NCBI GenBank assembly: GCA_964409765.1
Contig: CAYPEM010000015.1
Coordinates: forward strand, 8,713-72,712
Direction of reading: 5' to 3'
Source: an uncultured Chitinophagaceae bacterium
GTDB lineage: Bacteria > Bacteroidota > Ignavibacteria > UBA10030 > UBA8401
Length of the DNA: 64,000 nt
The notes beneath the pieces are model-generated. The model was given only the letters and a program-made list of their open reading frames with translations, did not search any database and was not told where the DNA came from. Both the position numbers and the translations under genes were made by a program. Below are positions 46,551 to 60,794 of this stretch, in pieces (within the stretch, counting starts at the first letter, position 1; the number at the start of each line of letters is the position of its first letter).

Positions 46551-49500
46551 TTATTTAAGTAACATCAATTTTTTTGTTTCGGTAAATGCTTTTTCACCAT
46601 TTGATATCACCGTCAGTTTATAAAAATAAACCCCTGTTGAGACAGTATTTCCTGCATCATCTTTACCATCCCACTCCAATTCATAAGTCCCAATCTGTTG
46701 GATTGTATTCACTAATGATCGAACCCGCTGACCTAACATATTATAAATATCGAGTGAAATATTTCCGCTATGCCCCAGAGTGTAGCGAATTTGCGTTGAT
46801 GGATTGAACGGATTTGGATAATTCTGCATCAGTGCATAATCGACTGCAATAAGAGGAATCCCCTGCGTATTTTTCTCAATATATTCTTTCTTTCCGGCAA
46901 TCAACCGGAAATTTCGGCGTGACTCATTCTTCACCATTGAAAATTCATAGAGATACGTATCGTCGATCTGCATAACGCGTTCAGTCATTTTGTCAACTAT
47001 ATAAATAACAAAATCATTTGGAATATTGCCGAGTTGTTCCAGATTCAATGAAATACGAGCCTGTGCTTTTGAAGTAACTACATCAAAATCCCAGAACAAG
47101 CCTTCGTTATTGATGGAGCGAATATCCAATGCATATGATCCACTCTGTTGTTTCCAAGAACTGTTTTGAAAACGTACCATCACATAATCCGTCGGTGATG
47201 GAGGCGGTTCAGCAACATCAAATGCATCAAATTCATTTTTCGCGCCTTTCGCTACACCCGCATAATTTTCTATATCGGAAGATTTTCCCGATGAGGCACC
47301 AATACTGATTCTCCACTCCGCTTCAGCATACGCCGCAACAGCATTTCCGGATTTTCCAAGACCGGTGATATCTTCAGGATTGATGTAAATGGTAACACTA
47401 TCACTTGAAAGATTCTTGACGAAGTACCCGGCGAATGGATCAAGCGCAAGGGATTCCGCTTTGAATGATTCACCGTCGAATTTCCAGATAAGATTCTGCG
47501 TTGAATCATGAAGTGAATTTTTCCAGCTCACTTTATACGGGAATGGATTACCGACCATAGAATATCCCGGACCAATCCTTATTGGATAATATGTTTGCAC
47601 TGGAATGATGGTTGAATTACCAAGACTGAGGCCAAACGCACCACGGGTGATCAACCAATACGCCTCACCTCGTTTGAAGGATGTGAATTTCTCATTTGGA
47701 AATTCGAGGTACTTCAATGTGGTTGGATTATATCGACCGAACAATCTCCACGATAACGGGCTCTGCTCGCCTAATCCTTTGAGAACTGATTCGACATCGT
47801 TATTATCAAGATCGAACGGAATACTGACCAATTGATATTGCTCATTCAATGTTTTATTTGGAAGTTTAACTTCGTAATCTTCCGTTACACTAAACACATT
47901 AATGGCAAACGTGAGATTATCTTTGATCGAAATATTCGGAACTGTTTGCTGACCGTTACTTTGAGCAGAAGATTGTGCCTTCCACATATCGGCATCACCC
48001 AACAATAGAATTTTCCCTTTACCGATCTTACTAAGCCCTGCGACAACAGGTTGCGTGCGGATTGGATTACCTATTGTTCTTCCATTCACAGTCGTAGTGA
48101 TCAAAGGAATTGCTGTGCCGGTAACAGTAACACTTGCACTTCCAAAAAACACCACCGTATCAACATTTGCAAAAAACGGGTGTTTGGCGTCTGCAAAGGT
48201 TGTCAATAATGGAGTTGCCGGGACAGAATAAAAACTCGACGAATCGACAACAAGATTTGAATCAAGTGAAAGATTCGTTGACCAAGATGTGTCTCTCAAT
48301 AACGAATTCAGTGCAGAGGTATTATTCCCTTCTATTGAGGAATTACCGAGTGCAACCACTAATCCACCGTTGAGTACAAATGTTTTTATTGAATCGATCT
48401 CCTGTCGTGAAAACTTCTTTTGGGGATTTATCAGCAAAAGAATATCATTTCCCGATGGACGCAGATCTGTCCCTGTGAGTGTAATTTGAATTCCGCTCTG
48501 TTCAAAGAAATTAAACAGCCGATTGACACCGCTTGTAGTATCTGTCAATGACAGGAACGAATTATGCAGCGTGTCAACCAATAATTTTTTTGTCACAGCC
48601 AGCTTTGCAATAGCTGAACCGTTAGCAGTCAACACTATCGTTTGATTTTTAGGATCGTTGGTAACGAAAACAAAAGCGGTAAATTGTCCGCCGACAGATT
48701 TAGGGTGATAGGTTATAGTGACTGTTTTTTGTGAACCAGGAGCAATCGATGATATTCCTGCTGTATCAAGAATAAAATTGGGATCCGGTGTTAAATTGAA
48801 TTCCGTAAATGCGGACACAGTTAAGGGAATATTACCTGTATTTGCAATCGTTGCAGATAATGATTTTGATCCGCCAAAATTAATTGAACCAAAATCAAAA
48901 TTGTTTTGAGAGATCGAAACCCTCGGAAAACCAAATACCGTAACAATTGCCGTGTCAAGATTAATAAGAAAACCATCGCTAACTGCTACAACAATTGTAT
49001 CTCTTCCTATCTGTGATACCGAAGGCTTCCATGAAAATGAACCATCAAGAAGAATAACTGCACCTGCAGGGAATTTCACAAATGAAAAAATGAGATTATC
49101 GTTGTCAGGATCGAATGCACTATATTTAAAATTCAATGTTGAATCGACCGGGAAATTAATATCGGGAAGTGTTGAAGTAAATTGCGGTCGTAGATTGTTA
49201 TTTTGAACCGTAATGATCGCTGTATCCAATATACCACCTGAACCATTGGTGACACCTACAATAATGAGATGCTGTCCACCCTGAAAATTAGCCGGTGTCC
49301 ATTGTAACAGTCCTTTTGGTGAAACAGTTAAACCTTGAGGACCAAGGAATAGACCAAATATCAATGTGTCTGATACATTGACACTCGAAGCTGAATATTG
49401 AAATGAAAATTGATTGTTTACTTTAATCGTCGTATCGGGAAGTGTCTTTGTAAAGAATAACGGACTATTACTTTTTAACACCAAGATATGTGCAGTATCG

Positions 49501-51749
49501 GTCACGATCGATTTTCCATCGTTCAATTGCACATATACATAAAATAATCCTGTTTGATTCTGGAATGCTTTGAAAGTAAAGTTTCCATTGTTGTCTATAC
49601 TTGCGCCTGGCGGACTATTCAACAAAGAATATGAAAAGATTTCATTATCAAGATCGATGGCTGAATATTTAAATGACAGTTTTGTTGTGTCATATATAAT
49701 CGTATCCCTTAAAACTGAAATAAACTGCGGTGGGCGATTCGTATTAACGACATTAATGTTCGTCTGTTTTGATGCATTCCCCCCCTTGCCATCCACAGCG
49801 AATACGACAAAACTGTGGAGCCCGGCTTGATTGAAGTTTGGCCTCCAATTCAGCATACCGGTTACTGTATCTATTGTCATTCCCAGTGGTTGATTTTGCA
49901 AAAAGAATTTTATTTGATCGTTGTCGGGATCGGATGCATCGTAATCAAACGACAATTGTTGATCTTCATTGATCGTTACATCACCCATTGCATTAGTAAA
50001 GAAAGGATTCGTATTCAATGAGGGAAGAATCGTGATCGATCCATTCTTCAGTGTGGTCGTCGGTTGAACCGGTGACGGTTCATTATTCTGATATTCAATA
50101 AAGTTCAACGGAGAAGCTTGTCCCGGAATTGTAAACTGTTTGTGATGGAACCGTAGTTTTGCAAAAATTCCTTTCCCTGAAATAGGTATTGTTCCGGCAA
50201 ATGCCATACTAACAATTGAACCGGAATCTTTTACAGCCGGAACCATTCCGACACTGATCGTCCCTGCCGTGATTAATTCCGAGAACCGCACTTTTGCAGT
50301 GTCATAACTTATTTTTATTTGTGTCGACAGAATACCAAGACCGGTAACATCAGAAATATAAATTGGAACATCGACCGAATCACCCACGCGAACCGTCGTA
50401 TCTGGTATACCTGCAAAAAAATCGTTGATCTTGATTGTAAATACTCCATCGAATCCTTGAGCATCAAAAACTTTTAGTGTATCAATTCCTTTTGATATTG
50501 CTTTAAACTTTCCTGTAAGGGAATCAATAACTGCTTTTGTTGTATCTGATACAAACCATTTGTATGGAGAAGTACCTCCTAGAGCAGTGAAGGTCAGCGT
50601 ATCTCCTTTTGTCACTACTTGAACATTTGGCTTAAGTGTGATTACCGGTCCTTGTATCGGCGAAAATATACCATTGTCAACGGTTGCAGTCATCGATTCA
50701 TTAAAAAGAATATTCTGCAGATCAAGATTCGAATTTTGAGTTGCGAACCGTTTCACTTGAAAACGAACATATGCCAAAATACCTTTACCGGTGAGTGTAT
50801 CGGAACCCGCCATTGCAACATCCATTGTTCCTAATCCATAATTAACAGTCGGCACTCCCCATGATTGTGCTAACGTCCCGGCAGTGAATACACCTTTTGG
50901 CACAAGAGAGTTTGTATTATAGTTCAATTTCCATTGCGCTGAAATGATCCCAAGCGAAGTGACATCGGAAACTCGAATCGGAAGATCAAACGTAAGGTTT
51001 TGCATGAACGACGTATCAGGAATAGTCATTGTTAAACTATTCAACGAAGGAGAGTTGATCGGAAATATGTTTGACTGATCGAACAATCCTTGCGAATCTA
51101 AAACTTTTACAAATGTTTGACCAACTTTTTTCCCAACAAATTTTCCTAAAGAATTAATAGACGCAATGGATGTATCGCCTACACTCCAAATAACAGGCAG
51201 ATTTAAATCTCCTGTGACCGAAAAGAGTATCGAATCACCGACAACTTTATTTTGCGGCGGGTTTTTAGGATTGATAAAAATATCCATCGGACGGAATGAA
51301 CCATTTTGTAAAGCGACGGATGGTGTTCCCTCGTTCAGTTTTGCGATAGAGAGACTGAATTGTTCAGTGATATTAGGCTGAGCAGCCATATTAACAACAA
51401 TCATCAAATAAAATAGAACACCCTTTCCGGTGATCGGTTCTGCAACGGAAAATGCGATCTGTTTTGTTGCTGCGTTGAATAGAACATTTTTCCCATTGAG
51501 CAGTGTTCCTACCGTATCAATTCCAATCACGGTAAACACATTGTTTGGCACATAAGTAAATTGTCCCGCAACAACAGAATCCGATGTTTTCAACGAATCA
51601 TCACAATAGATCGGGTAGGCATATGTTGCGCCACGTTTACCAAATCCACTATACAAACGAAGATGAACAGAATCGATCTGTGCGTACACTGTTGTGGTAC
51701 ACACAGCAGTCAACAGGGCGATAAATAAATAGAAGAATGATTTTTTCAT
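46551..51749 (-). CDS. giant T9SS cargo: scaffold-like protein with 3 cohesin-like, 2 Big_2-like and 4 cadherin-like modules, plus an HYDIN/choice-of-anchor-D-like module and a GldG/DUF4350-like module
   Basis: 1732 aa with an ATG start and a signal peptide ending VYAQ. See the module features below. The CTD is MQNYPNPFNPSTQIRYTL ... TGVYFYKLTVISNGEKAFTETKKLMLLK. Confidence 0.9.
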   Translation of the reverse strand: MKKSFFYLFIALLTAVCTTTVYAQIDSVHLRLYSGFGKRGATYAYPIYCDDSLKTSDSVVAGQFTYVPNNVFTVIGIDTVGTLLNGKNVLFNAATKQIAFSVAEPITGKGVLFYLMIVVNMAAQPNITEQFSLSIAKLNEGTPSVALQNGSFRPMDIFINPKNPPQNKVVGDSILFSVTGDLNLPVIWSVGDTSIASINSLGKFVGKKVGQTFVKVLDSQGLFDQSNIFPINSPSLNSLTMTIPDTSFMQNLTFDLPIRVSDVTSLGIISAQWKLNYNTNSLVPKGVFTAGTLAQSWGVPTVNYGLGTMDVAMAGSDTLTGKGILAYVRFQVKRFATQNSNLDLQNILFNESMTATVDNGIFSPIQGPVITLKPNVQVVTKGDTLTFTALGGTSPYKWFVSDTTKAVIDSLTGKFKAISKGIDTLKVFDAQGFDGVFTIKINDFFAGIPDTTVRVGDSVDVPIYISDVTGLGILSTQIKISYDTAKVRFSELITAGTISVGMVPAVKDSGSIVSMAFAGTIPISGKGIFAKLRFHHKQFTIPGQASPLNFIEYQNNEPSPVQPTTTLKNGSITILPSLNTNPFFTNAMGDVTINEDQQLSFDYDASDPDNDQIKFFLQNQPLGMTIDTVTGMLNWRPNFNQAGLHSFVVFAVDGKGGNASKQTNINVVNTNRPPQFISVLRDTIIYDTTKLSFKYSAIDLDNEIFSYSLLNSPPGASIDNNGNFTFKAFQNQTGLFYVYVQLNDGKSIVTDTAHILVLKSNSPLFFTKTLPDTTIKVNNQFSFQYSASSVNVSDTLIFGLFLGPQGLTVSPKGLLQWTPANFQGGQHLIIVGVTNGSGGILDTAIITVQNNNLRPQFTSTLPDINFPVDSTLNFKYSAFDPDNDNLIFSFVKFPAGAVILLDGSFSWKPSVSQIGRDTIVVAVSDGFLINLDTAIVTVFGFPRVSISQNNFDFGSINFGGSKSLSATIANTGNIPLTVSAFTEFNLTPDPNFILDTAGISSIAPGSQKTVTITYHPKSVGGQFTAFVFVTNDPKNQTIVLTANGSAIAKLAVTKKLLVDTLHNSFLSLTDTTSGVNRLFNFFEQSGIQITLTGTDLRPSGNDILLLINPQKKFSRQEIDSIKTFVLNGGLVVALGNSSIEGNNTSALNSLLRDTSWSTNLSLDSNLVVDSSSFYSVPATPLLTTFADAKHPFFANVDTVVFFGSASVTVTGTAIPLITTTVNGRTIGNPIRTQPVVAGLSKIGKGKILLLGDADMWKAQSSAQSNGQQTVPNISIKDNLTFAINVFSVTEDYEVKLPNKTLNEQYQLVSIPFDLDNNDVESVLKGLGEQSPLSWRLFGRYNPTTLKYLEFPNEKFTSFKRGEAYWLITRGAFGLSLGNSTIIPVQTYYPIRIGPGYSMVGNPFPYKVSWKNSLHDSTQNLIWKFDGESFKAESLALDPFAGYFVKNLSSDSVTIYINPEDITGLGKSGNAVAAYAEAEWRISIGASSGKSSDIENYAGVAKGAKNEFDAFDVAEPPPSPTDYVMVRFQNSSWKQQSGSYALDIRSINNEGLFWDFDVVTSKAQARISLNLEQLGNIPNDFVIYIVDKMTERVMQIDDTYLYEFSMVKNESRRNFRLIAGKKEYIEKNTQGIPLIAVDYALMQNYPNPFNPSTQIRYTLGHSGNISLDIYNMLGQRVRSLVNTIQQIGTYELEWDGKDDAGNTVSTGVYFYKLTVISNGEKAFTETKKLMLLK
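48930..50015 (-). repeat. four tandem ~91-aa cadherin-like/He_PIG-like repeats
   Basis: Each unit begins with an N-x-x-P-x-F motif (NTNPFFTNAMGDVTI, NRPPQFISVLRDTII, NSPLFFTKTLPDTTI, NLRPQFTSTLPDINF). Most contain an acidic DxDxD-like cluster (SDPDNDQIKF, FDPDNDNLIF) and a W-x-P motif (LNWRPNFNQAG, LQWTPANFQGG, FSWKPSVSQIG). Confidence 0.7.
50025..50420 (-). other. cohesin-like module 3
   Basis: aa ~444-575: IPDTTVRVGDSVDVPIYISDVTGLGILSTQIKISYDTAKVRFSELITAGTI...ISGKGIFAKLRFHHKQ...LNFIEYQNNE. This parallels the GDTVxIPVxF...G...xFxxSYDxxxLE...GVFAxIxxKVK pattern of clostridial cohesins as recalled. Confidence 0.6.
50655..51035 (-). other. cohesin-like module 2
   Basis: aa ~239-365: LTMTIPDTSFMQNLTFDLPIRVSDVTSLGIISAQWKLNYNTNSLVPKGVFTAGTL...LTGKGILAYVRFQVKRFATQNSNLDLQNILFNE. 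Confidence 0.55.
51285..51677 (-). other. cohesin-like module 1 of the 1732-aa protein
   Basis: aa ~25-155: VHLRLYSGFGKRGATYAYPIYCDD...VVAGQFTYVPNNVFTVIGIDTVGTLL...ITGKGVLFYLMIVVNM...LNEGTPSVALQNGSF. It shows a cohesin-type pattern: exposed strand pair, x-Y-D/N-x-x-x-L/F, and GKG-hydrophobic-F/Y-x-hydrophobic. Confidence 0.45.
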
Positions 51750-51770: not shown

Positions 51771-54700
51771 TTATTTCAACAACAGCATTTTTTTTGTATT
51801 CACAAAAACATTCTTTCCTTGTGATTGTGCAATGATCTTATAGAGATAGACTCCGCTGGAGACCGATCTATTATTATCATCCGCGGCATTCCACATCAGT
51901 GAATAATATCCCGCGCTTTGTTCCGTGCTGATCAGAGTTTTTACGATTTGTCCGATCATATTATAGATCGTGATAGTGACATAGCTTTCTTTCGGCAATT
52001 GATAACTGATTGTTGTTGCAGGATTAAATGGATTTGGATAATTCTGCTTGAGATCGAATACTGTCGGGATCACAGAGGGATCGTTTAGAGCAAGAGAAAT
52101 TCCACCAAAATCCTTAGCATAATCTTTTTCATTCAAAACAAATCTATCCATTGTAAAAACAATAGCATCAGTTGCAATAGCTGGATCCTTTACCGTGAAC
52201 GTGAATTGAGCAATATCTCCGGCAGTGTTCAATGGTTTAATTCCAGCCAATGCGAAATTTGCTGTCCCACGCGGGAAAAAATATGACATCATCATACTAT
52301 CGGTCAAAGCGGTTTGTTTCATGGTTTTTGGAACAATGACCGAAGAATCAAAGTGTAAACTCATGGTAATACCAAACACCTGTGATGGTTTGGTCACCGA
52401 AACATACATAGTATATTCACCTGTTGTTTGCGTTGGAGCAATTCTGAACGAGAATGCCGAGAACACGGCACTGGGTTGAGAATGTTTTCCAAGTCCGCCG
52501 GGAAAAGAGTTGATAAGTCCGACAACATATTGCAAAATCAATGATGCATCCGTTGATGAAATGGTGGAATCACCGCTGACATTTCCTACTCGTTTTTGTA
52601 CGGTATCAATCACAATTGCCCCGACTTCATTACGCAAAATCATTCCGGCATCGAATGATGTGATTGCTCCATTTCCACTCACATCTCCAAAACGAAATAC
52701 TTTGACAAGTACCGTATCATAGACATAAGAAAAACCGTCCGTTAACTGTACGATAAAACTAAATAATCCATTTGCATCAACCGGCGGATTCCATTGTAAA
52801 TCCCCCGTCGCCGATAATGTTGCCCCGGGTGGTGACACAAATAATGAAAAAGAGAGTTGCTGACTATCAGGATCAAATCCCGTGTAATGGAATCGAAGGG
52901 TATCAAACCTCGCAACGGATGTATCCGGCATTGTTTTAGTGAACAGTGGCAAATTATTAATATCGGTAACTGTAATAACAGCAGTGTCCAGCGCAAATCC
53001 GCCGAATTTATCAACTGCCAACACAATTACTGTCTCTATTCCTGCCTGTGAATATGATGGCTGCCATTGAAGATTACCCAATGCTGAAACCCACAACCCG
53101 GGCAAAGGAGTTAATGTTGCAAACGATACGGTGTCAAGATCAAAATCATCAGCAGAATAATTAAAGGTGAGCAATTGATTTTCTGTAATTGTCGTATCCG
53201 GTAATACTGATGTGAATACCGGAAATTGGTTAAGATTAAAAACGACAAATACAACCTCCTTAAAATCAAATGCATCTGATGGATCTTTTGCCTTAAAAGT
53301 CGAAGAGTAATTACCCGATTGTGTTAAATTCGGTGTCCATTGTATAAGTCCTGAAATTGAATCGACAGTCATTCCCGGTAAAAGAGAAACTGCGTAATAC
53401 TTCAGCGAATCGCCATCCGCATCAATAGCATCCATATCGAACGAAAAATTTTGGTTTTCTAGAAGATAAAACGTATCGGGAAAAGCAGTAGTAATGAGTG
53501 GAGCAAGATTGATATTGTTTACTGTTATCGTAAAAGAATGAGTCGCTGTACCATTTTCCTTACTATCAGTGATAACTATTGTTATCGGATAGATTCCGGC
53601 AAGTGAATTATCCGGTGTCCACGAAATTAAACCCGACATTGAATCCAATGTGAGCAGTGGTGGTTGGCCTGATTGAATGAAATATTTTACAACATCACTA
53701 TCCGGATCTGGTGCAACGATACTTACACTATATAATTGTCCTTCAACAATTATTGTATCATTAGGTACAATAGAAAATACTGGAGTCCGATTTGAATCGA
53801 CAACAGCGAATAATTGAGGATGAGAAGCACTTCCTCCAAAGAGGTCATGCGCTTCGATGACTCCAAGACGCATACCGGAATCCAGAAATGATGGGGTCCA
53901 AGTCATTTGTCCTGTAACGGAATCAATGGTCATCCCGCCTGGTGCTCCAATCAACGAATAATACACTGTATTAAGATCCGGATCATTTGCGGTTACTGTA
54001 AATGAAAATGCAATTCCTTCTTTTACAAAAAATGTGTCCGGAAAAATGGGGGAAAACGATGGTGGAAGATTTACGTTACTCACTGTTATAGTCAGTTGAT
54101 GCAGTGTAGTCTGACCGTTTCCATCATCGGCTGTTATTTCAAACACATATTCATTGGCACTTGCAAAAGAGGGTGTAAATAAAAATTGTCCGGTTATGGA
54201 ATCGATAGAAGCCTCATTCGCCGGAGCAGGATTTGTCGTTAAAAAATAATGCACAGTATGTCCGTTTGCATCGGTAGCGAAGAACAGTTTTGAATAAACA
54301 TCTCCTTCTTTTATTGTTGTGTCGGACGGTGTATTGACAAATACCGGCGGAGAGTTTGGGATCGGATCAACAGTCAATGATCCATCAACGTATGCGCCAT
54401 TAATACTTTCATTGACAATAAATTTTGTAAAGTGCAGAGTTTGAAAAGCAGAATTGACAATCGTTGATGTTGAGACAAACCGAAGTTTTAAAAAGAGTTG
54501 CTCATCGGTCACTCCTATCGGATTAATAGCAGCAACTCCGATTTTAAGCGTATCATATAGTTGATTAAACACTACAGACATAGAAGTTGTTAATGAGCTA
54601 TCGCTGTTTAATCCGATAAATTTAAAAAGGGTTGTATCATACGGTAGCGAAATATCGGCAGACAATAGACCAAGCAACGGAGAATTGTTCGAATAGAAGA

Positions 54701-55061
54701 CCCGGACTTCTGCGGTGTCGCCGTCTATAAACGTTGTGTTCTCAATTCGTGTTTTAAAAGCAAATGTACTGATCATTTGACTTCCGAAATTGCTTACACT
54801 GTCATTCACCGTAATTGTCACATTCGAGACCGATGTCATTACAACGACTTGAGCATCGGTTGCATTCAACGACGTAACAATCACTGAAGCTGGATGACTT
54901 GATGACCACGCATACGGTGCAGTTCCACCGGATGCAGTGATTGTTAGTGTATCGCCGATTTGAAGCGTTGATGGTAATCCATTAATACTTAATACTGGTT
55001 CAGCAAATGCAAAGACAATTCCACAACTAAGACATACTAGAGTGGTAAACAATATTTTCAA
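51771..55061 (-). CDS. giant T9SS cargo: Big_2-like + cohesin-like + 6 cadherin-like repeats + dockerin-like + cohesin-like + CTD
   Basis: 1096 aa with a TTG start (no in-frame ATG nearby) and signal peptide MKILFTTLVCLSCGIVFAFA. It begins 28 nt after the upstream gene and ends 21 nt before the next. The CTD is KQNYPNPFNPATTISYQL ... SGVYLYKIIAQSQGKNVFVNTKKMLLLK. Confidence 0.9.
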   Translation of the reverse strand: MKILFTTLVCLSCGIVFAFAEPVLSINGLPSTLQIGDTLTITASGGTAPYAWSSSHPASVIVTSLNATDAQVVVMTSVSNVTITVNDSVSNFGSQMISTFAFKTRIENTTFIDGDTAEVRVFYSNNSPLLGLLSADISLPYDTTLFKFIGLNSDSSLTTSMSVVFNQLYDTLKIGVAAINPIGVTDEQLFLKLRFVSTSTIVNSAFQTLHFTKFIVNESINGAYVDGSLTVDPIPNSPPVFVNTPSDTTIKEGDVYSKLFFATDANGHTVHYFLTTNPAPANEASIDSITGQFLFTPSFASANEYVFEITADDGNGQTTLHQLTITVSNVNLPPSFSPIFPDTFFVKEGIAFSFTVTANDPDLNTVYYSLIGAPGGMTIDSVTGQMTWTPSFLDSGMRLGVIEAHDLFGGSASHPQLFAVVDSNRTPVFSIVPNDTIIVEGQLYSVSIVAPDPDSDVVKYFIQSGQPPLLTLDSMSGLISWTPDNSLAGIYPITIVITDSKENGTATHSFTITVNNINLAPLITTAFPDTFYLLENQNFSFDMDAIDADGDSLKYYAVSLLPGMTVDSISGLIQWTPNLTQSGNYSSTFKAKDPSDAFDFKEVVFVVFNLNQFPVFTSVLPDTTITENQLLTFNYSADDFDLDTVSFATLTPLPGLWVSALGNLQWQPSYSQAGIETVIVLAVDKFGGFALDTAVITVTDINNLPLFTKTMPDTSVARFDTLRFHYTGFDPDSQQLSFSLFVSPPGATLSATGDLQWNPPVDANGLFSFIVQLTDGFSYVYDTVLVKVFRFGDVSGNGAITSFDAGMILRNEVGAIVIDTVQKRVGNVSGDSTISSTDASLILQYVVGLINSFPGGLGKHSQPSAVFSAFSFRIAPTQTTGEYTMYVSVTKPSQVFGITMSLHFDSSVIVPKTMKQTALTDSMMMSYFFPRGTANFALAGIKPLNTAGDIAQFTFTVKDPAIATDAIVFTMDRFVLNEKDYAKDFGGISLALNDPSVIPTVFDLKQNYPNPFNPATTISYQLPKESYVTITIYNMIGQIVKTLISTEQSAGYYSLMWNAADDNNRSVSSGVYLYKIIAQSQGKNVFVNTKKMLLLK
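52074..52466 (-). other. cohesin-like module following the dockerin-like module
   Basis: FSFRIAPTQTTGEYTMYVSVTKPSQVFGITMSLHFDSSVIVPKTMKQTALTDS...ANFALAGIKPLNTAGDIAQFTFTVKDP...IVFTMDRFVLNE. The pattern match is weaker than for the scaffold modules. Confidence 0.4.
52503..52688 (-). other. dockerin-like module (duplicated F-hand)
   Basis: GDVSGNGAITSFDAGMILRNEVG-(linker)-GNVSGDSTISSTDASLILQYVVGLINSFPG. These are two Ca-loop plus helix segments matching the type I dockerin pattern D-x-N/S-x-D/N-G-x-I/V-x-x-x-D-x-x-x-L. Confidence 0.65.
52692..54356 (-). repeat. six tandem ~93-aa cadherin-like/He_PIG-like repeats
   Basis: Units start at aa ~236, 330, 423, 517, 610 and 702 (PPVFVNTPSDTTI, NLPPSFSPIFPDTFF, NRTPVFSIVPNDTII, NLAPLITTAFPDTFY, NQFPVFTSVLPDTTI, NNLPLFTKTMPDTSV). 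Most have an acidic cluster (ANDPDLNTVYY, APDPDSDVVKY, AIDADGDSLKY, FDPDSQQLSF) and a W-x-P motif (MTWTPSF, ISWTPDN, IQWTPNL, LQWQPSY, LQWNPPV). Confidence 0.75.
54366..54764 (-). other. cohesin-like module (N-terminal) of the 1096-aa protein
   Basis: aa ~100-232: FAFKTRIENTTFIDGDTAEVRVFYSNNSPLLGLLSADISLPYDTTLFKFIGLNSDSSL...EQLFLKLRFVSTSTIVNSAFQTLHFTKFIVNE. Confidence 0.5.
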
Positions 55062-55089
55062 TAGAAGTACTTTCTCTTATGGTTGACCA

Positions 55090-58000
55090 TTATTTAACAA
55101 GGACCATTTTTTTAATCTGGGTAAAATGTTCTTTACCATTATAGCGTACATCAATTCGATAGAGATATACTCCGCTCGCAATCGATCGATTATCATTATC
55201 GGTACCGCTCCATTGAACCGTATAAAAACCTGCCGATTGCTGCTCATGAATCAGAGTTTTCACTTCTTGACCAAGCATATTATAGATCAATATTCTTACA
55301 TTACCGTCCTGAGGAATCTGATATTTGATCGATGTAACCGGATTAAATGGATTCGGATAGTTTTGTGACAATCCAAACGTTGTTGGAACATCGGTAATAT
55401 CTTCCACATTCAATATGATAGAGCCCACATCGGTGGTCAAATCATTTTCATTTATGACAAACTTCTTTACCGAGAAGATTGATTGCTGCTTAGCTTTTTC
55501 AGGATCACGAAGAATAAATGCAAATCGTATCACATCCCCTTCCGATTTCAAAGGTTTTGTTCCTGCCATTGCAACATGTGCAGAACCACTCGGGAAATAA
55601 GACACCATCGTCATACTATCGGTTTCGATTGTCTTTTTCATACCAACCGGAATAACCAATGTTGTATCAAATGAAAGATTAACATTCAGTCCAAATACAT
55701 TGGATGGCTTTGTAAGACGAATGATCAGATCATATTCGTTTGGATTTTTTCCTTTCTCAATGGAAAATGCAAATGATGAAGCAATATCGGCATCGTATGA
55801 TTGTTTCCCAAGTCCAGGAAATCCTGAGATCAATCCTACAACATAACGTAAAATGTATGAAGCATCAAGTGCACTGACCGTTGTATCACCGCTGACATTG
55901 GCAGCAATTTTTTGCGGTGTAGTAAGATTATGATTGATTGGATCGACTAAAAACTGCAAGATCATAGAACCATCAAATGCCGAGATTTGCCCGTTGCGGC
56001 TTACATCACCGGGTAAAATTCCTGATCGTGTGGTGAGGAATGGATCCCAATTAACATCCCCTGTACCGGAAATAAAAATCTGATTTCCTAATCCTGAAAG
56101 ATTTGATCTATTCGCTCCGGTCGCAGGACCGGTTATTTTTTTAGGACCGGTCACAGCTCCCCAATAATTATTTTGTGCATTGGTATTTACTCCGGTAGAA
56201 GACGAATAAAGTCCATAGGTAGTATTCTGATAAATATTATTGCCATTAATTGTTGGAACATTTGACCCGCTGACATATATTCCGCTCGCATTGTGATGAA
56301 TTTCATTTCCGACAACCATGGAAGGAGAATTATTAAACTGTATTCCCCATGTCTTTGCGTATGATACAAATGATGATTCGATCGATGCAGAAGATTGGCT
56401 TAAGTTCAATGAACCGGTATTGGATAAATCTCCATATCGAACAATGGTATTAAAAAAACGAGAACCGTTTGTTGTCGAGCCGGATAGTTGGATTCTATTC
56501 CAATCACCGGGAGCGGGAACTGTGGAAGCAGTGTCCCGATTCGTGTCATCTCCGTATGTATCATCCTTCCATGAAGTGAAAACGATCTTATTATTTGTCG
56601 TTCCTTCCGAAAGCAATGTTCCATTCACCAGAACATATCCGTTGCCGTATTCTTTGGGAAATTTAATGACGCTGCCGGGTGCAATCCGAAGTGTATCTCC
56701 TGATGCAACATTGAGATCACCCCGCACAGCAATAACCTTGGAATAGTTCGGTGGTAATGATGAGCCCAATCTCCCAAAGATGTTTTCTTGTGTCAGCATA
56801 ACATCATTGTACGTATTCCCAAGTATAACATTATTGTCATAGAAATTGCCCAATGCTGTACCGGTGCCGGCAAGTGATAGTTGTCCGATCAGTCCAATGG
56901 CATATCGGTTTCCTGAAATAGAATCATCGATCATATATGCTCTCGATGAAAATATTCCTGCGAGACCGTTATTCCGAACTTTATTTCCTGCGATCATTAA
57001 TAGCGTATCAATCGCATCATTACGAGCAAGTAAATACATTCCATGATCACCATTACTATTGATGGTATTACCAATCACGGACAGTGAGATAGTGTTGTTT
57101 TCAATGTAGAATCCTGTTTTTGTATTGTTAGAGATAATACAATTCGAGAGCACAGAGAGATTAGCAGGGCTTTGCACCCACACTCCGTAAAGGTTGTTTT
57201 TAATAATTTTTGAACTTCGTATTGATACTGTGTTAGATGCATTGGCACCAACATGAATACCGGATTCAGCACAACTATCAACAACAGTACTATCGATGAT
57301 GATTGGTGTACTATTCACATAAATCCCTGAGGACATTGATCGTCGCACCAAATTATTTGAAAAAGTTAATGCCCCAACATTCGTTTCAAAAAAGACTGTT
57401 TTTTGTCCATCCCTTCCGCCATATTTAAATTGACAATTTCTGACAATCGAAGATCCACTGCCATTACGAAAAGCAATATAATTCCAGTCTCCGGGTGCGG
57501 GCGGAACAAAATCCGTTTGAGAAGTTGTTTTTCCACCAACAGTACTATCCCTCCATGAAGTAAAAATTATCGGCTTTATCTGAGTTCCATTTGCAATCAA
57601 CGTACCGTAGACGTTGAATTGCTGCCAGTTATTTGCAGGTATCTGTTGGAATTTGATAATGACACCGGGTTCAATGACCAATGTTGTAGCTGCCGCCACT
57701 TCGAAATCATAAAGAGCAACGTACGTTTTGGAAGAAATGGCTAGTGGGAATGTTGCTTTTAAAGTATCTGAAATTTCTGCGTCCCATATAGCAATTGCAT
57801 TATAGACATTATTTGAAATAATATTTCCGTCCACACCGCTCGGATCTGTATAAATATTTCCGGTTCGCCTCCACACCGCAAGCGGAAATCGGTTTCGTTG
57901 TATGGTGTTATCAATAAAAGTTGCCCGACTGCTCAAAATACCTTCCTCTGCATTGTCGGTAATGGTATTGCCGACAAATCGAAGATTCGCAGGAAGAATC

Positions 58001-60741
58001 GGAGGACTGTTTGTATAAATCCCTCCATTAGCATTATTGGTTATCGTGTTTCCTTGATACACCTGATCGATAGTGCCATTCGAAGTACCAATTCCCCATC
58101 CATTATTTCTTCGAATGAAACAATTGGATACTTCACGGAATGCAGAATTATTTACTGCCTGCAAACCAGCGCCGTTATTATCCTGTATTATGCTGTTTCT
58201 CACAGTTATGTCGGATGGTCTATTTCCCGCTACATATACTCCATACGATGCATTGCTATCAAGTGTGATATTGTCAAAAGTAATCTGACAATCACTAATA
58301 TATATTCCCATCGATCCTGATTTTCTGCTAATGATATTTGTGATCGGATTTGCAAGAACGATATCATTGGTCATATATAAATTGCCAACACCATCCTGTC
58401 CGCCATATTTAAAAATGCAATTGTTGAATTTACTGCCGCTTGACGTGTTAGTATAGAGACGAACATAACGCCAATCAAGCGGTGCGGGTGCAGAATTATC
58501 AGAAAGAAGGTTGGTTTTCCCTCCATACGATGCATCTCGGTACGATGTAAAGACTATAGGATCTGTAGGCGTACCGCTAGCGATCAAGGTTCCATCAACT
58601 CGGAAATATATTGAAGGATACATTTTAATGATCACCCCGGGTTGAATAACCAGTGTTGTACCGTTATCCACAACAACTGAAGAATTAATATCAATAAGCA
58701 CATAGGTCTTTGAAGTAATTCCGGCAGGGAAAATTGTGCTCAGGGTATCTTGTAAACTTTCTTGAATTCGGTTGGCACGAAGTCCCAAGGCATTGTTATA
58801 TTGATTTCCAATAATAGTATTCCCGCTATAAGTACTATTAACTCGTCCTATTAAAGAAATTGGGTAGCTGTTTCCCTGAATAAGATTATTTGTGATATAA
58901 GCTTTTGAAGTAATAATCCCCTCTGCACCGTGATTAATGATCTTATTGCTGTCAATTGTTACAACAGAATTTACATTAAAACACCATATGCCGTAACCCG
59001 CTCCATTTCCCTCTATACGATTATAGGCAATTGTTTGAGCACCAGTACCGTACCAGAGATATATTCCGCCATTCGTGTTAAAAGAAATTACAGAGCTATC
59101 CAATGAAATGAGCGTTGCACTCGAAGCTCCTCCATCAGCAACAATACCATAGGTGTTACCGGACATGATTGACTTACGCACATTAAAGCGAGAATTTCCT
59201 GCTGCATAAATACCGTATGATCCATTACTGGATATCGTCGATTTATAAATAGAAGGATTAGAGCTTGGAATAAAAATTCCATATGTACTATTTGAACTAA
59301 AGGTTGAGTTTGTAACCGTAGAATTTGCACCACTATTTAAATACAATCCATAGTTTGAACTTTGAGTGCTATAGATACTATCGATAATTGGCGATGCACC
59401 ATCGACCCGAACATTTCCGTTTCCAGTTGAACCACCCCATTTGAAAATACAATTGTTCAAAACACTGGTGTTGTTTTGGGCAGCATTGAGCCATACCATA
59501 TCCCAGTTTCCTCTTGCGGGACCTGTAACACTACTATCGCCATTTGTATCACCGCCATAGGAATCGTCTCTTTCTGATGTAAAGACTACTAAACTGTCTG
59601 AAGTTCCAGTTGCGTCAATCGATCCGCTCACAGTCAATCGTACACCAAGTGCAAATTTAACGATCACTCCAGGTTTAATAGTAAGCTTAAACGTATTGTT
59701 CACAGAAATATCATTCTTTATCCAAAATACTCCGCTGGTCCAAGTTGTGTTGGCCGTAATATTTCCGGTCACAGGAATATAAGGTGATACTGGTGCAAGA
59801 ATTGTCCACGGTTGAAAATCAACAAGGTTGCTTACCTTATCTCCTAAACCAGTAGGGTTGTTGCTTGAATTATATGGTCCAGCATCACTCCCCCAATAAT
59901 TTCGTCGTGCTAAAACCGTTGTTGATGTACTGGTATTGAGAAATCCCCATGTAATATTATTGATGATCGTATCTTGTGTGATTGTTGGCTGCGTGGCTCC
60001 AACACCGGTAAATTGAATTCCAACATTATTACGACGAATATAATTTTTAGTGATTGTTGGAGCAGCACTGTTACTGATAAAAATTCCAATACCATTTGAA
60101 TCAACAGCAGAATTAGTAATTGTCGCTGTTGAATTCACACCTATAAGTACGCCACCAGTAGTATTATTGGAAATTGTACACGAGTCAACAGTATAGTTCA
60201 ACGATAAATCGGCAAAGATTCCATATCCTCCATTTTGTGTAAGAACAGTATTTGAAATGCGAGGAGATGACGACCGGGCATTAATACCGTGGCTGGAACT
60301 ATATTGGATTATTGAATTGGAGATATTAATAGCGGGAGCACCAGTTTTATAAAAAATATTTCCGGCATTTGGTCCACCGCCTGCAAACTCGACAATACAG
60401 TAATTGATCATTGAAGAAATAAGCGCAGAAGCCTGAAGTTCAATTCCATTCCAGATTCCGGGAAAGGGCACACCTGCATTCGAAGTGAACAGGATCAAAC
60501 TGTCCGATTTACCGTTAGCAGAAATCTTCCCTGCCACCGCAAGCATTTTACCCGTATTGAACTTTACGGTTGTGCCTGGTTTAACCGTCAGTGTAATGCC
60601 GACAGGTACAAATACTGAATCCGCAATAACTATTCCGGACCACGTCGTATCCGATATAATTGCACCGGACACAGTTTGTGCAGAAGAATTATTGAGAGCA
60701 AGAACTAATACTATGGACAACCAAAGTATCAAACGATTCAT
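55090..60741 (-). CDS. giant T9SS cargo: five right-handed parallel beta-helix (NosD/CASH-like) super-repeats + dockerin-like + cohesin-like + CTD
   Basis: About 1883 aa from the ATG at 60741 (RBS AAGGGTGA; the track start TTG at 60768 adds 9 aa). Signal peptide: MNRLILWLSIVLVLALNNSSAQ. Many short beta-helix turns are present (N-x-I-x-x-N-x-x-x-G-I). NYWG..GP motifs occur after repeats 1 and 5. The CTD is SQNYPNPFNPVTSIKYQI ... SGVYLYRIDVRYNGKEHFTQIKKMVLVK. Confidence 0.9.
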   Translation of the reverse strand: MNRLILWLSIVLVLALNNSSAQTVSGAIISDTTWSGIVIADSVFVPVGITLTVKPGTTVKFNTGKMLAVAGKISANGKSDSLILFTSNAGVPFPGIWNGIELQASALISSMINYCIVEFAGGGPNAGNIFYKTGAPAINISNSIIQYSSSHGINARSSSPRISNTVLTQNGGYGIFADLSLNYTVDSCTISNNTTGGVLIGVNSTATITNSAVDSNGIGIFISNSAAPTITKNYIRRNNVGIQFTGVGATQPTITQDTIINNITWGFLNTSTSTTVLARRNYWGSDAGPYNSSNNPTGLGDKVSNLVDFQPWTILAPVSPYIPVTGNITANTTWTSGVFWIKNDISVNNTFKLTIKPGVIVKFALGVRLTVSGSIDATGTSDSLVVFTSERDDSYGGDTNGDSSVTGPARGNWDMVWLNAAQNNTSVLNNCIFKWGGSTGNGNVRVDGASPIIDSIYSTQSSNYGLYLNSGANSTVTNSTFSSNSTYGIFIPSSNPSIYKSTISSNGSYGIYAAGNSRFNVRKSIMSGNTYGIVADGGASSATLISLDSSVISFNTNGGIYLWYGTGAQTIAYNRIEGNGAGYGIWCFNVNSVVTIDSNKIINHGAEGIITSKAYITNNLIQGNSYPISLIGRVNSTYSGNTIIGNQYNNALGLRANRIQESLQDTLSTIFPAGITSKTYVLIDINSSVVVDNGTTLVIQPGVIIKMYPSIYFRVDGTLIASGTPTDPIVFTSYRDASYGGKTNLLSDNSAPAPLDWRYVRLYTNTSSGSKFNNCIFKYGGQDGVGNLYMTNDIVLANPITNIISRKSGSMGIYISDCQITFDNITLDSNASYGVYVAGNRPSDITVRNSIIQDNNGAGLQAVNNSAFREVSNCFIRRNNGWGIGTSNGTIDQVYQGNTITNNANGGIYTNSPPILPANLRFVGNTITDNAEEGILSSRATFIDNTIQRNRFPLAVWRRTGNIYTDPSGVDGNIISNNVYNAIAIWDAEISDTLKATFPLAISSKTYVALYDFEVAAATTLVIEPGVIIKFQQIPANNWQQFNVYGTLIANGTQIKPIIFTSWRDSTVGGKTTSQTDFVPPAPGDWNYIAFRNGSGSSIVRNCQFKYGGRDGQKTVFFETNVGALTFSNNLVRRSMSSGIYVNSTPIIIDSTVVDSCAESGIHVGANASNTVSIRSSKIIKNNLYGVWVQSPANLSVLSNCIISNNTKTGFYIENNTISLSVIGNTINSNGDHGMYLLARNDAIDTLLMIAGNKVRNNGLAGIFSSRAYMIDDSISGNRYAIGLIGQLSLAGTGTALGNFYDNNVILGNTYNDVMLTQENIFGRLGSSLPPNYSKVIAVRGDLNVASGDTLRIAPGSVIKFPKEYGNGYVLVNGTLLSEGTTNNKIVFTSWKDDTYGDDTNRDTASTVPAPGDWNRIQLSGSTTNGSRFFNTIVRYGDLSNTGSLNLSQSSASIESSFVSYAKTWGIQFNNSPSMVVGNEIHHNASGIYVSGSNVPTINGNNIYQNTTYGLYSSSTGVNTNAQNNYWGAVTGPKKITGPATGANRSNLSGLGNQIFISGTGDVNWDPFLTTRSGILPGDVSRNGQISAFDGSMILQFLVDPINHNLTTPQKIAANVSGDTTVSALDASYILRYVVGLISGFPGLGKQSYDADIASSFAFSIEKGKNPNEYDLIIRLTKPSNVFGLNVNLSFDTTLVIPVGMKKTIETDSMTMVSYFPSGSAHVAMAGTKPLKSEGDVIRFAFILRDPEKAKQQSIFSVKKFVINENDLTTDVGSIILNVEDITDVPTTFGLSQNYPNPFNPVTSIKYQIPQDGNVRILIYNMLGQEVKTLIHEQQSAGFYTVQWSGTDNDNRSIASGVYLYRIDVRYNGKEHFTQIKKMVLVK
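55396..55785 (-). other. cohesin-like module following the dockerin-like module
   Basis: FAFSIEKGKNPNEYDLIIRLTKPSNVFGLNVNLSFDTTLVIPVGMKKTIETDS...AHVAMAGTKPLKSEGDVIRFAFILRDP...SIFSVKKFVINE. It is paralogous to 52074-52466. Confidence 0.4.
55816..56010 (-). other. dockerin-like module (duplicated F-hand)
   Basis: GDVSRNGQISAFDGSMILQFLVDPINHNLTTPQKIAANVSGDTTVSALDASYILRYVVGLISGFPG. It is paralogous to 52503-52688. Confidence 0.65.
56029..60666 (-). repeat. five ~300-345-aa super-repeats within the beta-helix protein
   Basis: Anchor motif x-L-x-I/V-x-P-G at aa 59, 361, 705, 1029 and 1359 (TLTVKPGTTVKF, KLTIKPGVIVKF, TLVIQPGVIIKM, TLVIEPGVIIKF, TLRIAPGSVIKF). Repeats 2-5 continue with G-T/S-L/I-x-A-x-GT...I-V/I-FTS-x-x-D-x-x-x-G-G/D-x-T-N, PAPGDW/PAPLDW/PARGNW, and C/T-I/Q-F/V-K/R-Y/W-G-G/D. 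Repeat 1 has a degenerate form (AGKISANGKSDSLILFTS, FPGIWNGI, CIVEFAGG). Confidence 0.8.
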
Positions 60742-60794
60742 TGTAATCACCCTTTCGACAATATCCAATTATGAAATATCAAGTACATTTTTTC

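Follow-up and report, generated by a model that had tools for sequence, protein, structure and literature searches.

Two neighbouring genes of an uncultured bacterium encode giant proteins with different bodies and closely similar C-termini, which raises the question of where this shared tail came from and whether it joins the proteins that carry it. An earlier note on this DNA read the tail as a portable cassette of a dockerin, a cohesin and a C-terminal sorting domain (CTD), moved by domain shuffling. We analysed the whole 64,000-nucleotide stretch that contains both genes (the window, to which all coordinates refer).

Comparison of the two tails

51771-55061, minus strand: open reading frame of the 1096-aa protein, which ends in tail 1
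55090-60768, minus strand: open reading frame of the 1892-aa protein (gene A, the beta-helix giant) from its longest start, which ends in tail 2

The public gene call of A starts at M10 of this frame and gives a protein of 1883 aa. The span originally described (51774-56010) takes in tail 1, the entire body of the 1096-aa gene and tail 2.

When the two proteins were compared by BLASTP, a single HSP was significant (E 4e-89), and it lay entirely within the C-termini. All remaining HSPs had E > 2, and the bodies are therefore unrelated by this search, as had been proposed. Global alignment of aa 792-1096 (window 51774-52688) with aa 1587-1892 (window 55093-56010), i.e. of 305 with 306 residues, gave 151 identities in 307 columns (49%) with two small gaps, and a score of 772 against -54 +/- 17 for 300 shuffles (z = 47.7). 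The likeness noticed by eye thus extends from end to end, and every peptide string quoted for it is present in the two proteins. Since identity per 30 columns ranges from 37% to 71% and is spread over all three modules, the similarity is not limited to the CTD. At the nucleotide level the tails are 57.6% identical and their longest exact run is 15 nt, which indicates old paralogy and rules out both recent conversion and an assembly artefact as the source of the likeness. Judged from their sequences, the tails represent a single C-terminal cassette in two old, paralogous copies.

Modules of the cassette

52491-52688, minus strand: tail 1 dockerin, aa 792-857 (Pfam Dockerin_1, HMM, AF2)
52074-52490, minus strand: tail 1 cohesin, aa 858-996 (Pfam Cohesin, HMM, AF2 with Foldseek)
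51774-52073, minus strand: tail 1 T9SS type A sorting domain, aa 997-1096 (TIGR04183), followed by the stop codon at 51771-51773
55810-56010, minus strand: tail 2 dockerin, aa 1587-1653 (Pfam Dockerin_1, HMM)
55393-55809, minus strand: tail 2 cohesin, aa 1654-1792 (tail-cohesin HMM)
55093-55392, minus strand: tail 2 T9SS type A sorting domain, aa 1793-1892 (TIGR04183), followed by the stop codon at 55090-55092

By its sequence, the first module is a calcium-loop dockerin of about 66 aa in the two-loop form. It has the build of a dockerin (about 60-70 aa in two segments, each with a 12-residue EF-hand-like calcium loop and a helix): in tail 1 the loops are DVSGNGAITSFD and NVSGDSTISSTD, a helix follows each, and AF2 places helices at residues 11-21, 29-35 and 45-55 (pLDDT 92-98). 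Pfam Dockerin_1 (PF00404) gives 20.6 bits for tail 1 and 22.7 bits for tail 2, just under the gathering cut-off of 22.9. The orthologue L037 is also below it (20.5 bits), L017 and L074 are above (28.3 and 29.0 bits), and the homologue P0123 reaches 60.7 bits. An HMM built from 53 homologous tails scores 96.1 bits (E 1e-29) on tail 1 and 88.2 bits on tail 2, and a family profile of 54 tails matches the dockerin 4uyq_B in the PDB (E 9e-14). The loop pattern D-V-S-x-N-G-x-[VI]-x-[AS]-[YF]-D is conserved, with D47, A48 and Y54 invariant. In 55 tails both loops could be located, with D/S/N/D at positions 1/3/5/12 of loop 1 and D or N/S/N or D/D at the same positions of loop 2; the second loop of the window's copies begins with N, not D. 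AYDASLIL occurs in both segments of the consensus, a near-symmetry of the two halves. Between phyla, where overall identity is 27-35%, the residues of the calcium loops and helices vary hardly or not at all.

The middle module of tail 1 scores 24.9 bits with Pfam Cohesin (PF00963; cut-off 24.1), and the orthologues reach 49.0, 28.7 and 44.9 bits. Pfam Cohesin reported no match on the tail 2 cohesin at E <= 0.01; this module is about 44% identical to that of tail 1, and the tail-cohesin HMM gives 112.1 bits (E 2e-34) for it and 120.5 bits for tail 1. The best cohesin match of the family profile in the PDB is 2xdh (E 1.9e-12). In the AF2 model the module forms the independent nine-stranded beta-sandwich of about 140 aa that is typical of cohesins, with strands over tail residues 78-198 (pLDDT about 90-97). 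Foldseek with the dockerin+cohesin model returned cohesins as all of the top 50 PDB matches (TMt up to 0.66; 0.64-0.66 for 2jh2, 0.59 for 2xdh), the whole-tail model matched 2w1n best (E 2.9e-09) and 2jh2 with TMt 0.64-0.68, and the CTD part of the profile separately matched the FlgD/PorU CTD. As modelled, the cassette cohesin (~135 aa) is therefore an independent cohesin-fold domain separate from the CTD, and the possibility raised in the earlier note that the middle module belongs to the CTD fold does not hold.

Both tails carry a type A sorting domain (TIGR04183 / PF18962) at the extreme C-terminus, with TIGR04183 scores of 34.1 bits (tail 1) and 37.9 bits (tail 2) against a cut-off of 23. 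Tail 1 also matches Por_Secre_tail (27.6 bits) and FlgD_ig (37.9 bits), and the domain reaches the last residue in 55 of 79 tails. The three-module composition first proposed is thus borne out by Pfam, NCBIfam, the profile search of the PDB and AF2 with Foldseek.

38030-39100, minus strand: PorV/PorQ-family outer-membrane protein, a T9SS component (NCBIfam NF033709, 199 bits, cut-off 90)

This gene belongs to the same-strand gene run. The window encodes five further CTD proteins, and a GHL10 neighbour protein has a CTD and no dockerin; the T9SS core genes porK/L/M/N, sov and porU were not found within the 64 kb. Type A CTD cargo is not always kept on the cell, so surface anchoring of the tail proteins is an assumption.

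The neighbouring genes

46551-51749, minus strand: gene B, 1732-aa protein (Pfam, cohesin HMM, TIGR04183)
52689-55061, minus strand: body of the 1096-aa protein (Pfam, cohesin HMM)
56011-60768, minus strand: body of gene A, a signal peptide and five ~330-aa repeats of right-handed beta-helix (Pfam)

The three genes are separated by 28 and 21 nt. The body of A matches Beta_helix (211.9 bits in 9 stretches) and NosD (113 bits), and its repeat motif recurs at aa 59, 361, 705, 1029 and 1359. Protein B begins with three cohesins (HMM: aa 97-151, 236-361 and 448-560) with Big_2 between them, followed by Ig repeats, a HYDIN-like Ig domain, DUF4350 and a T9SS CTD (Pfam Cohesin 62.8 bits, TIGR04183 33.3 bits). 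A is orthologous along about 1600 aa in 72 genome loci, and the N-terminal 570 aa of B are conserved in 74. B lies directly downstream of a tail-bearing A, on the same strand, in 72 of 81 loci (80 genome loci and the window's own contig) distributed over Ignavibacteriota, Bacteroidota, Balneolales, Cloacimonadota and Calditrichota. Together the two genes encode four cohesins and one dockerin. In the beta-helix protein the tail is ancient and belongs as a fixed component to a conserved family and gene pair; it did not move there recently. The cohesins of B and the conservation of the pair had been overlooked.

The body of the 1096-aa protein consists of a signal peptide, a Big_2-like domain, an N-terminal cohesin (aa ~103-219, window 54405-54755, HMM iE 3.5e-12) and He_PIG/Big_9/cadherin-like Ig repeats. 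It aligns colinearly to residues 360-941 of protein B (E 5e-49 and 6e-44). These alignments identify the gene as a local chimera, in which the N-terminal part of a B copy is joined to the tail of an A copy. The underlying duplication is old (the 57.6% nucleotide identity given above). The proposed domain shuffling is therefore supported in a specific local form, the combination of two neighbours. Neither the N-terminal cohesin nor the chimeric origin had been recognised before.

Distribution and constancy of the cassette

The search for the same tail on other proteins was made with a dockerin+cohesin profile (E <= 1e-30) and matched 1271 cluster representatives, with LamG, PKD, fn3, beta-helix, cadherin-like and other bodies. 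Among the 101 top representatives that carry the entire dockerin+cohesin unit, the unit ends 93-113 aa before the C-terminus in 92, in proteins of 322 to 4626 aa; in 35 representatives, LamG, PKD, fn3, beta-helix and Ig make up most of the bodies. The cassette is thus portable, as suggested earlier, and FCB-group bacteria carry it on a large number of bodies that are unrelated to each other and for the most part non-catalytic, also where there is no multi-cohesin neighbour.

Module order is fixed and the size is 288-317 aa (79 tails). Dockerin and cohesin are always adjacent; their linker spans 5 to 33 aa (median 13 aa), some homologues carry inserts of 50-70 aa, and in P0123 the two modules are duplicated as a whole. 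Five loci have two dockerins per one tail cohesin (dockerin-dockerin-cohesin-CTD), so that at least one dockerin must bind elsewhere. Proteins with a dockerin and a CTD in which no cohesin was detected occur in the same organisms.

Possible function of the cassette

AF2 gave a pTM of 0.86 for dockerin and cohesin in one chain, and a pTM of 0.77 with pLDDT 88.2 for the entire tail, from shallow alignments of 18 and 54 sequences; we estimate that the two pTM values would be about 0.6 and 0.45, in this order, if the domains were independent. The arrangement of the two modules within one chain is accordingly predicted to be fixed, their contact being read from pTM alone. Together with the constant adjacency and the whole duplication in P0123, this argues that dockerin and cohesin are one unit. 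Such an arrangement would fit self-complementary binding, in which cis and trans are not separable by it; it fits equally the two states considered in the earlier note, head-to-tail polymerisation and an intramolecular closed state.

The shared tail probably joins its proteins on the cell surface. In our preferred reading, which we hold to be evenly poised between right and wrong, the cassette of dockerin, short linker, cohesin and T9SS domain is a self-complementary plug and socket for surface clustering. The CTD would carry each protein through the T9SS and then be cleaved off, so that the mature protein would end in the cohesin, close to the surface. The dockerin would bind a cohesin in a calcium-dependent manner and would recognise the cassette type, clasping it in cis by default and possibly swapping in trans to a neighbouring molecule, while the additional cohesins in B and in the chimera might offer further sockets that cluster adhesin-like proteins on the outer membrane. 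Counting against it are the four cohesins per one dockerin in the A-B unit, which self-complementarity leaves unexplained, the two-dockerin loci, the sub-cut-off Pfam dockerin scores and the N-starting second loop. A more elaborate form is doubtful, and we offer it tentatively: the unit may daisy-chain T9SS-exported FCB-group proteins with each other and with small multi-cohesin hubs, for example B, into a non-covalent, calcium-dependent outer-membrane lattice or adhesin array, a cis-clasped closed state before or during export opening by domain swapping.

Alternatively, the dockerin and cohesin of the cassette might be non-cognate. The tail dockerin would then bind the N-type cohesins of B, a small anchored scaffoldin, and the tail cohesin would be a socket for dockerin proteins encoded elsewhere. 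This is possible, if on the unlikely side. It agrees with the A-B adjacency kept in 72 of 81 loci across phyla, with the three cohesins and absent dockerin of B, and with the scores of the tail-cohesin HMM (112-120 bits on tails, 13-60 bits on B), since divergent tail-type and N-type classes are expected of different specificities. The two-dockerin variants, the dockerin+CTD proteins and the adjacent Chlorochromatium genes Cag_2037/2038 with complementary modules (bioRxiv 10.64898/2026.03.19.712371) point the same way. However, AF2 confidently sets the dockerin against its own cohesin, the two travel and duplicate as a single unit, and many proteins bear the cassette without a multi-cohesin neighbour.

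It is distinctly improbable that the two modules are a purely intramolecular clasp, i.e. a permanent rigid stalk or folding unit before the CTD, like the X-module-dockerin dyad, which would provide stability or a T9SS handle and no inter-protein assembly. The high single-chain pTM, the constant length and the position directly before the CTD in 92 of 101 representatives are consistent with it, but linkers of 5 to 33 aa and inserts of 50-70 aa would be unusual for a rigid dyad, and the conserved triple-cohesin partner and the chimera's extra N-terminal cohesin would be left unexplained. That the modules are degenerate relics which bind nothing, the tail being a spacer and export signal alike by common descent, is very improbable: the window's Pfam scores at or below gathering thresholds and the absence of a carbohydrate-active enzyme on the dockerin proteins here would suit it, but the dockerin residues are nearly invariant across phyla, most orthologue scores exceed the Pfam cut-offs and both modules are kept together in 1271 representative clusters.

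Comparison with known systems

A cellulosome was rejected: the dockerin proteins show only Beta_helix/NosD or Ig/cadherin-like repeats and no CAZyme. Pfam found no CBM family on the triple-cohesin protein B, which thus does not qualify as a cellulosomal scaffoldin.

The non-cellulosomal pair of Archaeoglobus fulgidus likewise has no cellulase context, and its cohesin 2xdh is the best cohesin match of the tail profile and the top Foldseek hit. There, one protein reportedly combines a cohesin with a dockerin, a gene next to it encodes another cohesin, and the dockerin binds both cohesins (work attributed to Bayer, 1999, and Haimovitz, 2008). Unlike our system, this pair is archaeal, lacks both a T9SS sorting domain and a giant adhesin-like body, and is found in single copies instead of being spread as a cassette over many proteins. 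Clostridial scaffoldins (CipA/ScaA) also combine cohesins and a duplicated two-loop dockerin on one chain and have a multi-cohesin partner, but their dockerin is of another type than the same-chain cohesins, which excludes self-binding; they are anchored to the Gram-positive wall by SLH or sortase and carry CAZyme cargo. The cohesin-FN3 modules of Clostridium perfringens GH84C (2w1n, 2jh2, 2ozn) are non-cellulosomal cohesins followed by an Ig-like domain as well, but they belong to Gram-positive toxin/glycosidase complexes with the dockerin on another protein and no T9SS.

Within the FCB group, the cellulosome-like system of Ca. Stygibacter (Cloacimonadota), inferred from genomes only, combines cohesin/dockerin proteins with a T9SS CTD on a scaffoldin-like protein (PMC8542988). 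Its dockerins are on enzymes (GH18, GH57, peptidases) and its 3755-aa scaffoldin has tandem cohesins and CBMs (PMC8542988), whereas in the window the dockerin proteins are non-catalytic by Pfam, no CBM was found, and the dockerin is next to a cohesin in the same chain, directly before the CTD. Cag_2037/Cag_2038 of the Chlorochromatium aggregatum epibiont, also in an FCB-group phylum, are adjacent giant Ig-repeat or beta-helix genes, for whose complementary modules a role in keeping a surface protein attached to the cell has been proposed; in contrast, they are exported by T1SS (RTX), lack the tripartite tail and carry one dockerin and one cohesin on separate proteins (bioRxiv 10.64898/2026.03.19.712371).

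Conclusions

The system described here is a non-cellulosomal cohesin-dockerin system coupled to the T9SS; its parts are known, and the literature searched describes no such arrangement of them. Few known non-covalent protein links are as strong as cohesin-dockerin pairs, of which protein engineering makes wide use; to our knowledge, what is understood of them comes almost entirely from Gram-positive cellulosomes. In the present case the pair is fused with a T9SS signal in one small cassette, shared by over a thousand protein clusters from environmental Bacteroidota, Ignavibacteriota, Cloacimonadota, Calditrichota and relatives, and one deeply conserved two-gene unit couples it with a triple-cohesin protein. 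The chimera neatly illustrates the assembly of multi-domain surface proteins from genes that lie side by side. Provided that the modules do bind in the predicted manner, the cassette would be a general way for these bacteria to organise large adhesin-like outer-membrane proteins after T9SS export and a source of new orthogonal cohesin-dockerin pairs. Should the plug-and-socket lattice prove true, it would be a Gram-negative, non-enzymatic counterpart of the cellulosome principle.

Genes of the locus and the shared tail

From 23.9 kb to 64 kb, the window has genes on the minus strand only, and the three large ones among them are separated by spacers of 28 and 21 nt. The genes named individually below are as follows.

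55090..60768, minus strand: beta-helix giant (A), 1892 aa if the longest start is taken; 1883 aa, starting at M10, in the public gene call
51771..55061, minus strand: cadherin-type, chimeric gene, 1096 aa
46551..51749, minus strand: triple-cohesin gene (B), 1732 aa; next gene after the 1096-aa gene
38030..39100, minus strand: PorV/PorQ-family outer-membrane protein (199 bits)

BLASTP comparison of the 1096-aa and 1892-aa proteins yielded one significant match (E 4e-89), located at both C-termini, with all other segments at E > 2, which corroborates the claim of the earlier note that the bodies of these proteins are unrelated. The tails, which had been matched by eye, proved alignable from end to end: in a global alignment of aa 792-1096 (window 51774..52688) with aa 1587-1892 (window 55093..56010), 151 of 307 columns were identical (49%), there were just two small gaps, and the score exceeded that of 300 shuffles by 47.7 standard deviations. 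In blocks of 30 columns, identity was 37-71% over the full length and 37-67% in the dockerin and cohesin parts, which rules out a similarity limited to the C-terminal domain (CTD).

At the DNA level the tails are 57.6% identical, with a longest exact run of 15 nt, which points to an old paralogy. Recent gene conversion or an assembly duplication was ruled out by these two values, by the third base being shared in only 58% of the identical codons, and by the retention of both paralogues (A-type and 1096-aa-type) in two of the loci fetched from related genomes (L005 and L007).

Identity of the three modules

The tail is composed of three modules.

Tail residues 1-66: dockerin, two EF-hand-like loops with a helix after each
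Tail residues ~67-205: cohesin (Pfam Cohesin, Foldseek and profile matches)
Last ~100 tail residues: CTD, T9SS type A sorting domain (TIGR04183)

Pfam Dockerin_1 scored 20.6 and 22.7 bits on the two tails, slightly below its cut-off of 22.9 bits; the cohesin of tail 1 (that of the 1096-aa protein) reached 24.9 bits against a cut-off of 24.1, and the CTDs 34.1 and 37.9 bits against 23. In the 55 tails in which both dockerin loops were found, the consensus is D-V-S-x-N-G-x-[VI]-x-[AS]-[YF]-D for loop 1 and [DN]-V-S-G-[ND]-x-x-[IV]-[TS]-[AS]-x-D for loop 2, and dockerin residues D47, A48 and Y54 are invariant across the alignments. A profile built from 54 homologous tails matched a solved dockerin (4uyq_B, E 9e-14) and the solved cohesins 2xdh of Archaeoglobus fulgidus (E 1.9e-12), 1g1k and 2vn5, as well as FlgD Ig domains and the PorU C-terminus.

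The AlphaFold2 model of the tail (mean pLDDT 88.2) consists of three helices followed by two separate beta-sandwiches. According to Foldseek, its middle module resembles stand-alone cohesins (TMt up to 0.68), and all 50 of the 50 best PDB matches of the dockerin+cohesin model are cohesins. The profile and Foldseek matches rule out that the middle module is a piece of the CTD fold; it is an independent cohesin fold, and the earlier note was right in its assignment of all three modules.

Cohesins, CTDs and neighbouring genes

HMMs made from homologous tails were run against the six-frame translation of the window. Dockerins were detected in the two tails only. Six cohesins were found: one per tail, one near the N-terminus of the 1096-aa protein (aa ~103-219, iE 3.5e-12) and three in B (aa 97-151, weak; 236-361; 448-560), where Pfam confirms Cohesin with 62.8 bits. 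A T9SS CTD is present on six proteins of the same-strand run.

Protein A contains five repeats of ~330 aa, each of which opens with a TLxIxPGxxIKF-type motif (aa 59, 361, 705, 1029 and 1359 in a motif search); self-BLAST of the protein returned the identity match alone. It matched no catalytic family beyond Beta_helix/NosD, and sequence searches revealed no solved relatives of its body or of B. The variable middle part of B includes a DUF4350/ABC_transp_aux (GldG-like) region and a HYDIN-like Ig domain (aa 1073-1257, within 46551..51749, minus strand), and is common to the closest relatives only (L002-L007).

The three large genes are followed downstream by a same-strand run (35363..46496, minus strand) resembling a T9SS-cargo or PUL-like cluster. 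It includes a CTD-bearing GHL10 (glycosyl hydrolase-like 10) protein, a TonB-dependent receptor, a protein of 697 aa whose CTD is weak, the PorV/PorQ-family protein, a TIG-domain protein and a CTD protein of 447 aa. In other genomes, no conservation of this run was seen beside the A-B pair, and GHL10, the TonB receptor and rmlA/rmlC are common to the closest relatives only.

Conservation of the A-B gene pair

A GTDB scan (one genome per species) with the dockerin+cohesin alignment identified 351 relatives, of which the best 80 loci were fetched. Their MAG labels comprise Ignavibacteriae/-ales/-ota, Bacteroidetes/-ota (including Paludibacter, Lentimicrobiaceae and Chitinophagales), Balneolales, Cloacimonadota, Calditrichota, Chlorobiaceae, Neomarinimicrobiota and others. 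Two labels deserve a comment, both on contigs with a locus of Ignavibacteria/Bacteroidota type: L005 (CALRIY020000001.1) is filed under a "Synechococcus sp. UW140" MAG and L047 (CALRWV020000004.1) under a "Prosthecochloris vibrioformis" MAG; at least L005 looks mis-binned or mislabelled. The only exact match was a Logan metagenome contig (run SRR13076506), and the most closely related genomes are Ignavibacteriae and "Bacteroidetes" MAGs.

In an HMM census of 81 loci (the 80 genome loci and the contig of the window), dockerin-cohesin-CTD ends 79 ORFs, with a median tail length of 305 aa (range 288-317). The beta-helix family is partnered with a small multi-cohesin protein: in 72 of the 81 loci the next same-strand gene is a cohesin run, mostly of three cohesins and mostly ended by a CTD. 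By tblastn, the beta-helix body of A is orthologous over ~1600 aa in 72 loci (36-53% identity), and the triple-cohesin N-terminus of B is conserved in 74. Pfam gave the same composition in loci of Ignavibacteriales, Paludibacter and Calditrichota, namely Beta_helix repeats, Dockerin_1, Cohesin and Por_Secre_tail for A, and three Cohesin, two Big_2, fn3 or PKD and Por_Secre_tail for B. Together, the conservation of both proteins and their recurrent pairing indicate that the tail of the beta-helix protein is an ancient, fixed part of a widespread family. No other conserved neighbours of the pair were found; all-against-all clustering of flanking ORFs yielded spurious antisense ORFs only.

Some variants were also observed. 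Two Cloacimonadota MAGs carry a small cohesin+CTD gene (281-291 aa) between the beta-helix and triple-cohesin genes (L014, 7106-7948; L020, 6114-6986), and their triple-cohesin protein is without a detectable CTD. Tails with two dockerins and one cohesin (doc-doc-coh-CTD) occur in L024, L031, L032, L041 and L055.

Portability of the cassette

Searched against 1.84 billion cluster representatives, the dockerin+cohesin profile gave 36,500 matches at E <= 0.001, 10,461 at E <= 1e-10 and 1271 at E <= 1e-30. Of the best 150 representatives, 101 carry dockerin and cohesin complete and as a single stretch; their lengths vary from 322 to 4626 aa, and in 92 of them the unit ends 93-113 aa short of the C-terminus. 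The bodies, examined by Pfam in 35 representatives (Laminin_G_3, PKD, fn3, Beta_helix, Flg_new_2, Big_9/cadherin, CARDB, FG-GAP, CBM9, PD40), are mostly binding or adhesin-like domains rather than enzymes. This position near the C-terminus on many different bodies supports the proposed portability of the cassette. For three cassette proteins, whose bodies are fn3, LamG or unknown, no neighbouring gene encodes multiple cohesins, which indicates that the cassette also serves outside the A-B context.

In a word-indexed search, about 50 clusters among the matches listed span 97-100% of the tail at 27-64% identity, and their NCBI names are only "T9SS type A sorting domain-containing protein" or "cohesin domain-containing protein". 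The best 120 matches of that search are all <=530 aa and do not include the window's own 1096-aa and 1892-aa proteins; the list seems skewed to short or fragmentary proteins, given that the representative search reaches 4626 aa.

One representative (P0123) carries the unit duplicated whole, as doc-coh-doc-coh-CTD. In six homologues (P0028, P0029, P0035, P0038, P0047 and P0057) the dockerin is separated from the cohesin by an insert of 50-70 aa, which holds a third calcium-loop-like motif, "GDVSGNW".

Origin of the 1096-aa gene

Residues 14-791, the body of the 1096-aa protein, are colinear with residues 360-941 of its 1732-aa neighbour. The shared part, made up of Big_2, the third cohesin and He_PIG/cadherin-like repeats, is 29-35% identical (E 5e-49 and 6e-44), and the similarity breaks off at corresponding positions of the two proteins (...VFRF|GDVSG and ...VFGF|PRVS). 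In a neighbour-joining tree, the tails of the cadherin-type genes form one clade; its sister group is the beta-helix tails from that lineage, and it is nested inside those of more distant genomes. Colinearity with B and the placement of the tail within the A tails indicate that the gene is a chimera of an N-terminal part copied from B and a tail copied from A. The domain shuffling proposed in the earlier note is thereby supported, with the qualification that its route here was local duplication and fusion.

In the window, as in L005 and L007, the chimera is flanked by A and B. Directly upstream of the cluster are rmlC and rmlA (dTDP-rhamnose synthesis; 60940..62353, minus strand), which are 67-91% identical to the genes in the same position in L002-L004. 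In these three loci the chimera occupies the place of A, directly after rmlA/rmlC, and no beta-helix gene is found there.

Comparison with known systems

By analogy, the locus would work like a cohesin-dockerin assembly system that is not a cellulosome. A true cellulosome was ruled out, since Pfam revealed neither a dockerin-bearing carbohydrate-active enzyme nor a CBM-bearing scaffoldin in the window and the 35 representatives. The closest described cases are the non-cellulosomal pair of Archaeoglobus fulgidus, whose cohesin 2xdh is the best cohesin match of the tail profile in the PDB; the cellulosome-like system inferred for Ca. Stygibacter (Cloacimonadota), whose scaffoldin bears a CTD (PMC8542988); the adjacent cohesin and dockerin genes Cag_2037/2038 of a green sulfur bacterium (bioRxiv 10.64898/2026.03.19.712371); and the numerous dockerin and cohesin proteins of ANME archaea (PMC9012536). 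For Melioribacter, 0 cellulase genes with dockerin or scaffoldin domains were reported (PMC3534657).

All parts of the cassette are known and already labelled by automatic annotation. Full-text searches for dockerin and cohesin with T9SS, Ignavibacteria, Bacteroidetes or beta-helix, in a literature from which most subscription journals are missing, returned no description of the tripartite tail or of the A-B pair. What appears to be new is the recurrent cassette with dockerin and cohesin side by side before a T9SS CTD, the deep conservation of the pairing with a triple-cohesin protein, and the derivation of a chimera from neighbouring genes.

Possible function of the cassette

Type A CTDs guide Sec-exported cargo through the T9SS and are cleaved off by the sortase PorU; Porphyromonas joins the new C-terminus to anionic LPS, and in other species the cargo may be released. 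After cleavage of the CTD, which follows the cohesin by a linker of median 7 aa, the cohesin would become the C-terminal, surface-proximal module.

Across phyla, the dockerin has strongly conserved residues in its calcium loops and helices, and it travels and duplicates with the cohesin as a single unit. AlphaFold2 reached a pTM of 0.86 with dockerin+cohesin and of 0.77 with the complete tail, above the values of about 0.6 and 0.45 that we estimate for independently placed domains; at this pTM the single-chain model asserts a fixed dockerin-cohesin arrangement, which fits a cis clasp and a trans swap alike. Taken together, these observations suggest that the dockerin binds a cohesin, and that the modules are non-binding relics is highly improbable.

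Which cohesin is bound may be answered in several ways. We give an even chance to the cassette being a self-complementary plug and socket, whose dockerin would clasp the cohesin of its own cassette in cis or swap in trans; the additional cohesins in B and in the chimera would then serve as further sockets. A scaffoldin model, in which the tail dockerin binds the cohesins of B, is favoured by the conserved A-B synteny, by the divergence of tail-type and N-type cohesins and by the doc-doc-coh-CTD variants, and we regard it as possible at a lower level of confidence. A permanent cis clasp devoid of any assembly role agrees with the fixed arrangement as well, and seems unlikely. The head-to-tail polymerisation or closed state envisaged in the earlier note is a testable hypothesis, for which the AlphaFold2 model provides indirect support.
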